DNA from: Escherichia coli
GTDB lineage: Bacteria; Pseudomonadota; Gammaproteobacteria; Enterobacterales; Enterobacteriaceae
Assembly: GCF_013315695.1 (NCBI RefSeq)
Contig: NZ_CP054361.1
Strand: one strand, 5' to 3'
DNA length: 2,113 nucleotides
The translations under genes and the position numbers were made by a program. The notes beneath the pieces were generated by a model, which saw only the letters and a program-made list of their open reading frames with translations, searched no databases and was not told where the DNA came from. Positions 1 through 2,113 of the stretch are shown here, in pieces. Position 1 is the stretch's first letter. The number at the start of each line of letters is the position of its first letter.

Positions 1-82
1 GGTTTTGAGGATGAATTAATTTTATATATTCAGAAAACAAACGAGAGGGTAAAAACTCTTTTTGTGAAAATAGATTTAAACG

Positions 83-90
83 GTATCAAG
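83..90 (-). other. Candidate double-strand-origin nick motif CTTGATAC (minus strand), pC194/pUB110/phiX174-type
   Basis: Plus-strand GTATCAAG at 83-90 gives CTTGATAC on the minus strand (context CCAAACTTGATACCG). As I recall, CTTGATA is the conserved nick core of this Rep family. A 6-bp-stem hairpin (TAAGAA-CGCA-TTCTTA, 101-116) is adjacent. The motif is absent from the plus strand, and an 8-mer has a non-trivial chance occurrence in about 4.2 kb of two-strand sequence. Confidence 0.3.
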
Positions 91-140
91 TTTGGATTTT
101 TAAGAACGCATTCTTAGTTCTGGAAAAGAGCCAGCGGCAG

Positions 141-150
141 GCTGAGGTGA
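141..150 (-). repeat. Inverted dispersed copy of the repeat core (reads TCACCTCAGC on the minus strand)
   Basis: Plus-strand GCTGAGGTGA at 141-150 is the reverse complement of TCACCTCAGC, which contains the CCTCAGC core of the tandem unit and is identical to the plus-strand 10-mer at 890-899. Confidence 0.5.
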
Positions 151-165
151 TAGGTACGAGATTGC

Positions 166-294
166 ATGCAATCTCTAGTGCTCTGTCTATCCTGCATTAT
201 CCTCAGCATTATCCTCAGCATTATCCTCAGCATTATCCTCAGCCTTGCCAACTCGACACCAATGCAGGATAGACAATCCGATGTCAAATGTTAA
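166..294 (+). CDS. Hypothetical 42-aa hydrophobic peptide reading through the tandem repeat (MQSLVLCLSCIILSIILSIILSIILSLANSTPMQDRQSDVKC); speculative
   Basis: ATG at 166 follows an in-frame TAG at 151-153; stop TAA at 292-294. The 12-bp repeat is in frame and encodes IILS x4, giving a roughly 25-residue hydrophobic segment followed by a charged tail. Only a weak SD (GAG at 158-160). All three frames through the repeat are open, so this may be an artefact. Confidence 0.15.
   Translation: MQSLVLCLSCIILSIILSIILSIILSLANSTPMQDRQSDVKC
195..242. repeat. Tandem direct repeat, 4 perfect copies of 12-bp unit CATTATCCTCAG
   Basis: Identical units at 195-206, 207-218, 219-230 and 231-242. A degenerate partial copy (TATCCTG) lies at 188-194 and the array decays into CCTTGCC at 243. 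Confidence 0.95.
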
Positions 295-480
295 CACTCT
301 GCGAGTGGTACATTTTCCCCGGATTATCGTCCTGAGCCTGCCGCTGGCTCTCTTTCTACCGCCTCGCTTTGCTCGTTGCTCAACGCCTCACAGACACGGA
401 TTAAAATCCGCATCCGTTCACCGTTTTTTAAAGTCCGTTAAAAGCATGATGCCATCTCCGAGAGTTAATCTCGTCAAATG

Positions 481-620: not shown

Positions 621-801
621 GGTGATCGGGTGTGTGGAAAAGGTTGGGGTAAGCCGTTCGGGGGTGCTTGTTTTGGGGGGTTAAAATTGTGGTTATTTTT
701 TGCGCAATTCTCGCGCGTGATCCTTGTATTTATACTTAAGGGATAAATGGCGGATATGAAATAGTGGTTTAGCCCAGTAATGACGAGGCTTTGAGTGGGT
801 T

Positions 802-830
802 TTGACAGGTCAAAGAAAATGGAGCAGAAT
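802..830 (+). promoter_or_regulatory. Candidate sigma70-type promoter: TTGACA (802-807) - 17 bp - CAGAAT (825-830)
   Basis: Perfect -35 hexamer embedded in the palindrome TTTGACAGGTCAAA (801-814). The -10 match is only 4/6 but keeps the conserved A2 and T6. It would place the 850-877 hairpin in the rep leader. By-eye prediction only. Confidence 0.2.
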
Positions 831-849: not shown

Positions 850-877
850 GTTGGGGAGTGCGTCAACACTCCCCAAC
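850..877. repeat. 11-bp perfect inverted repeat (GTTGGGGAGTG / CACTCCCCAAC) with 6-nt loop CGTCAA; candidate origin or operator hairpin
   Basis: 850-860 is the exact reverse complement of 867-877. The stem is GC-rich and lies about 120 bp upstream of the rep start. No T-run follows it on either strand, so it is not a typical intrinsic terminator. Confidence 0.85.
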
Positions 878-994: not shown

Positions 995-1960
995 ATGTCA
1001 GAAGATAAATTCCTTTCGGACTACAGCCCCCGTGATGCAGTTTGGGATACCCAGCGCACGCTTACCGATTCTGTCGGGGGTATCTACCAGACTGCTGCTG
1101 AATTCGAGCGCTATGCACTCCGTATGGCCTCCTGTAGCGGTTTGTTACGTTTTGGTTGGTCTACCATCATGGAAACCGGAGAAACGCGCCTACGGCTTCG
1201 TAGTGCGCAATTTTGCCGTGTCCGTCATTGCCCTGTCTGCCAGTGGAGAAGAACCCTCATGTGGCAAGCCCGTTTTTATCAGGCTCTACCGAAAATCGTT
1301 GTGGATTACCCGTCTTCCCGATGGTTGTTTCTGACGTTAACTGTCAGGAACTGCGAGATAGGTGAACTTGGAACAGTCCTTACAGCAATGAATGCGGCGT
1401 TTAAGCGAATGGAAAAGCGAAAGGAGCTATCACCTGTTCAGGGGTGGATCAGGGCTACGGAGGTGACGCGAGGTAAGGATGGCAGCGCACATCCGCATTT
1501 TCACTGTCTGCTGATGGTGCAACCTTCTTGGTTTAAAGGGAAGAACTACGTTAAGCACGAACGTTGGGTAGAACTCTGGCGCGATTGCTTGCGGGTGAAC
1601 TATGAGCCGAATATCGATATTCGGGCAGTAAAAACTAAGACAGGTGAGGTTGTGGCCAACGTTGCCGAGCAACTGCAAAGCGCGGTTGCTGAAACGCTGA
1701 AATACTCCGTTAAACCGGAAGATATGGCAAACGATCCTGAGTGGTTTCTTGAGCTGACGCGGCAGCTTCACAAGCGCCGTTTTATCTCGACCGGTGGGGC
1801 GCTAAAAAACGTCCTCCAGTTGGATCGAGAAACCAATGAGGATCTTGTCATTGCCGACGATGTAGGGGATGGCACTGATGACGGGAAGCGGACGGCGTTT
1901 GTCTGGGATTCAGGTAAACGGCGTTACAAACGCGCCCCTGAGAAGGATAAATCGGATTAA
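995..1960 (+). CDS. rep: Rolling-circle replication initiator protein, Rep_1 (pC194/pUB110) HUH endonuclease family, 321 aa
   Basis: ATG at 995 is the first start after an in-frame TGA at 944-946, with GGAG at 983-986 eight nt upstream. Translation shows CRVRHCPVC (aa 74-82, nt 1214-1240), FLTLT (aa 112-116, nt 1328-1342), HUH motif HPHFH (aa 166-170, nt 1490-1504), WVELWRD (aa 191-197) and ETLKYSVK with Glu233/Tyr237 (Tyr codon 1703-1705). Motif order and spacing match my recollection of pC194 RepA and pUB110 RepU (FLTLT, HPHFH, CPVC and KYSxK motifs). No search was run. Confidence 0.93.
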   Translation: MSEDKFLSDYSPRDAVWDTQRTLTDSVGGIYQTAAEFERYALRMASCSGLLRFGWSTIMETGETRLRLRSAQFCRVRHCPVCQWRRTLMWQARFYQALPKIVVDYPSSRWLFLTLTVRNCEIGELGTVLTAMNAAFKRMEKRKELSPVQGWIRATEVTRGKDGSAHPHFHCLLMVQPSWFKGKNYVKHERWVELWRDCLRVNYEPNIDIRAVKTKTGEVVANVAEQLQSAVAETLKYSVKPEDMANDPEWFLELTRQLHKRRFISTGGALKNVLQLDRETNEDLVIADDVGDGTDDGKRTAFVWDSGKRRYKRAPEKDKSD

Positions 1961-2113
1961 CGTATGAATATTAATATTGAATACCTGAATGGAAATAAGA
2001 CTATTGGTTTATTTTTTTTAAGAAGTGAAGCGGTGATTCCTGACAGGTTTAAAAACCTTATTTTGCTTATTGATGGATTAAGTTTTGGCACATTTGGTTT
2101 TCATCCGCACGAA

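Follow-up and report, generated by a model that had tools for sequence, protein, structure and literature searches.

The stretch of DNA analysed here, called the window throughout, comprises 2,113 nucleotides of Escherichia coli contig NZ_CP054361.1. It carries the replication initiator gene rep and, directly behind it, an open reading frame of 88 codons, ORF88, which begins near the right end of the window and is completed at its left end (Table 1). The same two ends are markedly AT-rich, and the subject of this analysis is what this AT-rich DNA represents.

The first-pass annotation of the window had proposed that its two AT-rich flanks would join if the molecule were circular, and that the end-to-start junction be checked. 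The window is an exact rotation of the circular 2113-bp plasmid record NZ_CP070424.1 (offset 489) and likewise of the circular 2113-bp record NZ_CP049842.1 (offset 1669), which was deposited independently of the former. Furthermore, 300 nt across the junction are contained within both records. The circularity of the window is therefore settled: it is a complete circle, cut inside ORF88, and the flanks form one contiguous AT-rich block. A megablast search against 72,556 plasmid records returned 211 with a coverage of the window of 80% or more. These are mostly 2088–2113 bp long, their hosts being Escherichia, Shigella, Klebsiella and Salmonella, and the matching records inspected are typed as Col(BS512) and non-mobilizable. 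The rep product belongs to the Pfam family Rep_1 (PF01446, E = 1.3e-88), the initiator family of pC194 and pUB110. As a circle which encodes a Rep_1 initiator and is nearly identical to plasmid pKYM of Shigella sonnei, the window is a rolling-circle plasmid of the pKYM/Col(BS512) type.

ORF88 is annotated as a single coding sequence of 267 nt in NZ_CP070424.1, NZ_CP049842.1 and NZ_CP082065.1, and RefSeq lists the hypothetical protein WP_001024536.1 wherever the start point of the record leaves the frame uncut. Diverged relatives were found via the ORF88 protein. Within the pKYM group, they define four lineages: the window itself, a 2207-bp element from rat-gut metagenomes (L004/L007, concatenated in tandem in L004 and circular in L007), an element of 2432 bp (L009) and a Klebsiella contig (L011). 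The order of rep, a 3-nt gap and an 88-codon frame is retained in the latter three. In pairwise comparisons of the window, L004 and L009, the ratio of non-synonymous to synonymous substitutions (dN/dS, Nei–Gojobori) is 0.07–0.10 at a synonymous divergence (dS) of 0.7–1.1. The comparison of L011 with the window gives 0.81 at a dS of 0.07, a divergence too small to inform. The alignment of 12 family members shows small in-frame gaps only. As almost all copies of ORF88 in the databases are at least 99% identical, the evidence for selection comes from the four lineages, three of which are well diverged, and from eight remote homologues described below. Because the diverged relatives keep the frame intact with low dN/dS values, ORF88 is shown, at the level of sequence comparison, to be a real gene under strong purifying selection.

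This gene accounts for the base composition. The G+C content is 31.4% at positions 1961–2113 and 28.3% at positions 1–120, or 30.0% for the joined block, compared with 49.7% for the remaining window, so that the description of both flanks as AT-rich in the first-pass annotation was accurate. On the circle, the 273-nt window with the lowest G+C content (28.9%, 3.3 standard deviations under the mean) starts at position 1947. The edges of the block, as seen in 30-nt windows, are sharp and lie at about 1960 and about 120. Block and ORF88 coincide within three bases at each end, the G+C content of ORF88 being 29.6% against 49.7% for the rest. The AT-rich block is thus very probably the coding sequence of a gene for an 88-residue cytoplasmic protein, the second gene in the rep operon of a pKYM/Col(BS512)-type plasmid. 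The rep promoter would drive the transcription of ORF88, and its translation would be coupled to that of rep, as suggested by the 3-nt gap and the weak GGA triplet 7 nt upstream of its start. GGAT or GGAG precedes the start in each of the nine family members that were inspected.

Several points weigh against this assignment. The Shine–Dalgarno-like triplet of ORF88 is weak, and expression of the gene is predicted, the case being built on sequence. Since nearly all copies are so similar, selection was measured on few lineages. No match to a family, domain or solved structure yields a function for ORF88. Finally, its constant placement just behind rep could point to a role linked to replication.

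The block contains three landmarks, a run of eight T residues, a palindrome and the motif CTTGATAC on the minus strand, all of which the first-pass annotation had located correctly. None of them exceeds chance. A run of at least eight A or T residues occurs in 6% of shuffled versions of the block. Three palindromes with a 6-bp stem were observed (0.95 expected), a number reached in 10% of the shuffles. The exact heptamer CTTGATA is found in 26% of the shuffles, and with one mismatch allowed there are two matches, whereas 5.7 are expected. All three landmarks consist of ORF88 codons and vary with them. In L004, the T-run is interrupted synonymously (TTG TTC TTT TTA) with the residues unchanged. 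The palindrome is lost in L004 and regained in L009, both through synonymous changes at third positions. On the plus strand, GTATCAAG is changed in the three diverged relatives (L004, L009 and L011) to GCCTCAAT, GCATTAAT and GTATCAAT, with changes of codons.

Two structural elements that these landmarks might have indicated were ruled out. A terminator at the T-run is excluded as the run is made by codons and varies synonymously. A functional hairpin at the palindrome is excluded on the same grounds, its loop of 2 nt being in addition too short to form a hairpin. The block, taken as single-stranded DNA, does not fold beyond its shuffles (z = −0.34). A single-strand origin inside the block was rejected for this lack of excess structure, the adjacent region 118–360 reaching z = −8.5. 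An Rfam scan of the window gave two sub-threshold chance matches only, neither of them within the block.

A better candidate for the double-strand origin lies upstream of rep. The 25-mer CCTTGTATTTATACTTAAGGGATAA (722–746), on the rep strand, is identical in 11 of 11 related plasmids. These include the window and pKYM; the other nine are L004, L009, L011 and six plasmids of the ColpVC or Col(MP18) types, whose Rep proteins are 67–69% identical. In the relatives, the 25-mer is located about 220–290 nt before rep, and the flanks surrounding it can no longer be aligned. A 39-nt query centred on this core matched 513 plasmid records. Because it is conserved, on the rep strand and upstream of rep, the invariant 26-mer at 721–746 is most likely the site at which replication starts and ends. 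Rolling-circle plasmids end the synthesis of the leading strand at the nick site once this has been regenerated.

The first-pass annotation had taken the joined block for an origin-proximal or termination region, that is, for a non-coding element which would be either a double-strand origin nicked at the minus-strand CTTGATAC or the region of leading-strand termination. AT-rich DNA is indeed typical of origins. Moreover, pC194 and pUB110 are nicked at CTTGATA, a motif which their records contain and which occurs exactly once in the window (84–90, minus strand). In pC194 and pUB110, however, the motif is found on the rep strand, upstream of rep, as their own records show, whereas the single copy in the window is carried by the other strand, inside ORF88, and is not conserved. 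Its occurrence in the block does not exceed chance, and each of the three diverged relatives has it in altered form while otherwise preserving the open reading frame. CTTGATA was found on neither strand of the nine other related Rep_1 plasmids, all of which keep the 25-mer at 722–746. Further, a homologous Rep drives the replication of relatives that are devoid of the block, and the substitutions within the block follow a protein pattern. A non-coding role of the block, with CTTGATAC as an origin signal, is therefore so improbable that we set it aside; the block is better explained as a coding sequence under purifying selection, with the nick site most likely at 721–746.

ORF88 was found in 242 of 5,426 complete E. 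coli genomes (about 4%). Three of the 269 matching places in these genomes are on records labelled as chromosome. Exhaustive searching of 1.8 billion representatives with HMMER, combined with a profile search, identified eight further homologues of 71–88 residues with 30–51% identity, all of them on contigs of 1.3–2.4 kb. The contigs of six could be retrieved (L018 and L020–L024). In four of these (L020, L021, L022 and L023), the homologue is located 1–32 nt behind a rep gene of the RepL/HTH_36 type. L020 and L022 have terminal overlaps, which point to circles of about 1.7 kb that hold rep and the homologue only. The homologue is convergent with RepL in L018 and lies beside a Rep_3 gene in L024. 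Just upstream of the homologue in L024, positions 107–141 are still similar to the end (3′) of a RepL gene as present in L021 and L023, which suggests that a piece of its former rep gene was carried along when the cassette moved. The remote homologue genes have a G+C content of 25–34% on backbones of 37–45%. Low G+C content is thus a property of the ORF88 family, the members having 25–34% on backbones of 37–50%.

The protein gave no match in Pfam, NCBIfam, PADLOC or the sequence profiles of the PDB, and in PHROGs it matched only families of unknown function with E-values of 1e-3 or weaker. The AlphaFold model is confident (mean predicted local distance difference test score, pLDDT, 84) and shows a compact beta-beta-alpha-alpha-beta-beta fold. 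Searches by fold returned one protein of the same size and predicted fold, A0A8S5LB40, an uncharacterized protein of 84 residues from Podoviridae sp. ctBev14 (BFVD model; Foldseek E = 7e-4, template modelling scores 0.68/0.71). Its identity to ORF88 is only 16%. ORF88 has no hydrophobic stretch sufficient to span a membrane. The isoelectric point is 5–7 in most family members, that is, the protein is neutral to acidic.

No ORF88 match was detected by tblastn in the six ColpVC and Col(MP18) relatives. Because ORF88 is missing from these sister plasmids, which share the origin core and have a homologous Rep, we consider the gene to be an accessory. It appears portable because its relatives sit behind RepL-type rep genes or beside Rep_3 on other mini-plasmids. 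We infer from this distribution that ORF88 is a portable accessory cassette served by the rep promoter and placed outside the replication machinery. Our best guess is that it would be cargo which benefits plasmid or host whatever the type of initiator, for example by stability, immunity or anti-defence. The main rival is an accessory for replication or copy number which would act together with host machinery such as HU, UvrD or the sliding clamp. Such a role would explain the site behind rep; we regard it as rather unlikely, and as a secondary choice to portable cargo.

Table 1. Positions of ORF88, rep and other features in the 2,113-nt window.
Feature	Position	Strand	Remarks
ORF88, codons 1–50	1964–2113	+	ATG 3 nt past the rep stop; RefSeq WP_001024536.1
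ORF88, last 38 codons and TAG stop (115–117)	1–117	+	Frame runs unbroken from 2113 into 1
GGA, weak Shine–Dalgarno-like triplet	1954–1956	+	7 nt before the ORF88 ATG, within the last rep codons
Run of eight T	2012–2019	+	Codons TTA TTT TTT TTA (Leu-Phe-Phe-Leu)
Palindrome AGGTTTAAAAACCT	2045–2058		Within codons for Arg-Phe-Lys-Asn-Leu
CTTGATAC (GTATCAAG on the plus strand)	83–90	−	Within codons for Gly-Ile-Lys; chance match to the pC194-type nick motif
rep (RepK of pKYM)	995–1960	+	321 residues; rolling-circle initiator of the Rep_1 (pC194-pUB110) family; TAA stop at 1958–1960
TCCTTGTATTTATACTTAAGGGATAA, candidate core of the double-strand origin (nick)	721–746	+	26-mer ending 249 nt upstream of the rep ATG; an invariant 40-mer spans 707–746
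Long composite hairpin	124–354		Arms 124–147/331–354 and 184–198/261–275; begins 7 nt past the ORF88 stop
12-nt unit GCATTATCCTCA, four exact tandem copies	194–241	+	Starts directly after a plus-strand TATCCTG motif, which the unit resembles
IncX4-identical segment	260–296	−	Identical over 37 nt to the DNA preceding taxA; holds TATCCTGC at 264–271 (minus strand)
Promoter-like site TTGACA-17-CAGAAT	802–830	+	Upstream of rep
Convergent promoter-like site, extended −10	978–949	−	In the rep leader
Hairpin with perfect 11-bp stem	850–877		Between the two convergent promoter-like sites

Beyond the ORF88 stop codon, the DNA is highly structured. The region of the long composite hairpin folds as single-stranded DNA with −53.7 kcal/mol (z = −8.5). 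The hairpin has terminator-like sites facing both ways and encloses the tandem repeats as well as a segment resembling an origin of transfer (oriT). It is a candidate which may serve as a single-strand origin, as a two-way stop of transcription or as an oriT-like element. In L009, its interior has been swapped for about 250 nt of unrelated sequence with the outer arms kept. The number of the 12-nt units varies among the records, resulting in size classes of 2089, 2101, 2113 and 2125 bp. Next to the hairpin, positions 355–600 are the best-conserved non-coding stretch among the pKYM-like relatives, with 89–95% identity while neighbouring sequences cannot be aligned. This stretch is also structured as single-stranded DNA (z = −2.8), with hairpins at 471–488/510–527 and 554–568/572–586, and is a candidate for a single-strand origin or an enhancer of the origin. 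Positions 504–746 of the window are about 73% identical to ColpVC plasmids. As to the single-strand origin, both 124–354 and 355–600 appear to be better candidates than the AT-rich block.

The window is matched by 343 records typed as ‘conjugative’, and the 37-nt oriT-like segment is identical in IncX4 conjugative plasmids. In pMCR-NMG38, it is located about 70 nt upstream of taxA-taxC, which encode a relaxosome accessory protein and a MOBP relaxase. A second collinear block of 24 nt (331–354) is 87.5% identical to IncX4 at the same spacing. The motif TATCCTGC occurs twice in the window (188–195 on the plus strand and 264–271 on the minus strand; 0.2 expected) and fits the nick consensus of MOBP relaxases, YATCCTG/Y (nick at the slash). 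In IncX4, an inverted repeat directly precedes the motif; of this repeat, only the motif-proximal arm is retained in the window. By its sequence, the region 260–354 looks like an orphan oriT of the IncX4 type, the region upstream of taxA in IncX4 being itself a presumed oriT. The plasmid has been described as being without evidence of mobility (bioRxiv 10.1101/2024.01.30.577996), and oriTfinder was reported to detect no oriT in an IncX4 plasmid (PMC10604428).

The vicinity of this segment raises the question of whether ORF88 acts as an accessory of mobilization together with the oriT-like hairpin next to it. The oriT-like blocks are found just downstream of ORF88 in the window, and such blocks also adjoin the homologues in L020 and L024. 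The other four of the six remote homologue contigs, however, show no oriT-like block. When the plasmid collection was searched by tblastn, ORF88 was present in 213 records, 212 of which are non-mobilizable plasmids of the Col(BS512) type and one of which is typed as conjugative; no IncX4 homologue was evident. The neutral to acidic character of the protein is, moreover, unlike that of typical DNA-binding accessories of relaxosomes. A function in mobilization is accordingly very unlikely, and cargo of more general benefit is the preferred interpretation of ORF88.

Between the candidate origin and rep, two promoter-like sites face each other on either side of a perfect hairpin. This layout would fit a control of rep by antisense RNA.

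The feature as such is already known, being an annotated hypothetical gene on a long-known plasmid, pKYM, and the stakes for plasmid biology are modest. What is noteworthy is that ORF88 is real and strongly constrained, is broken in the reference record of pKYM, and represents an uncharacterized family whose members occur solely on mini-plasmids, these being of several replicon types. The case also illustrates that a circular replicon which is cut for display can have a gene split across its ends. An AT-rich gene then mimics two non-coding flanks, and short motifs inside it mimic signals of an origin. If ORF88 does confer an advantage under selection (through stability, buffering of copy number, immunity or anti-defence), this could help to explain the persistence of a ‘cryptic’ and officially non-mobilizable plasmid of 2 kb. 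The IncX4-like oriT remnant might add to its persistence by allowing hitch-hiking.

pKYM is a classic rolling-circle plasmid of Gram-negative bacteria. Its record (NC_001378.1, 2083 bp, PlasmidFinder type Col(BS512)) differs from the window in just 34 alignment columns. The differences consist of one deletion of 24 nt, which corresponds to two of the 12-nt repeat units (two copies in pKYM, four in the window), six single-base gaps and two CG/GC swaps. Gaps and swaps, of a kind typical for early sequencing, are also the main deviations of NC_001378.1 from the modern records in general. Two of the single-base gaps, at window positions 2032 and 2046, disrupt ORF88, and only a 55-residue remnant is annotated at this place in NC_001378.1. 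Because the 88-residue frame is intact in all modern records as well as in the diverged relatives, these two gaps are most likely errors of the early sequence. A more far-reaching scenario, which we offer tentatively and hold to be possible rather than probable, is that ORF88 founds an undescribed family of about 85 residues which is the sole or main cargo of tiny enterobacterial plasmids. The family would have moved among replicons whose initiators are unrelated (Rep_1, RepL-type and Rep_3), usually landing directly behind rep, and would have been missed for 40 years through the two frameshift errors in the original pKYM sequence.

Compared with the prototypes of the initiator family, the window shares with pC194 and pUB110 the Rep_1 protein (by tblastn, 35% identical to the Rep of pUB110 and 27% to that of pC194) and one exact copy of CTTGATAC. 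The candidate nick region at 721–746 has a layout, CTTG...TAAGGG.TAA, which loosely resembles that of the pC194 origin. An alignment of positions 700–767 to the origins of pC194 and pUB110 was not significant (the score was reached by 12% and 29% of shuffles, respectively) and was not used as evidence. The ColpVC and Col(MP18) Rep_1 plasmids of Enterobacteriaceae are closer, with their homologous Rep and the identical 25-mer core on the rep strand. These plasmids are without a block of 30% G+C. Their 267-nt window of lowest G+C content has 40–47%, and in four of the six it lies on the origin core. The rule that the most AT-rich region is the origin would work for most of the relatives lacking ORF88, and is misled here by an AT-rich gene. 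The closest system is pKYM, in which both the Rep_1 initiator (RepK) and the 39-nt origin core are the same as in the window. For pKYM, a rolling-circle mode of replication has been reported, with a plus origin of 173 bp that consists of a core and an enhancer, and its replication was found to depend on HU and UvrD (PMC4439123).
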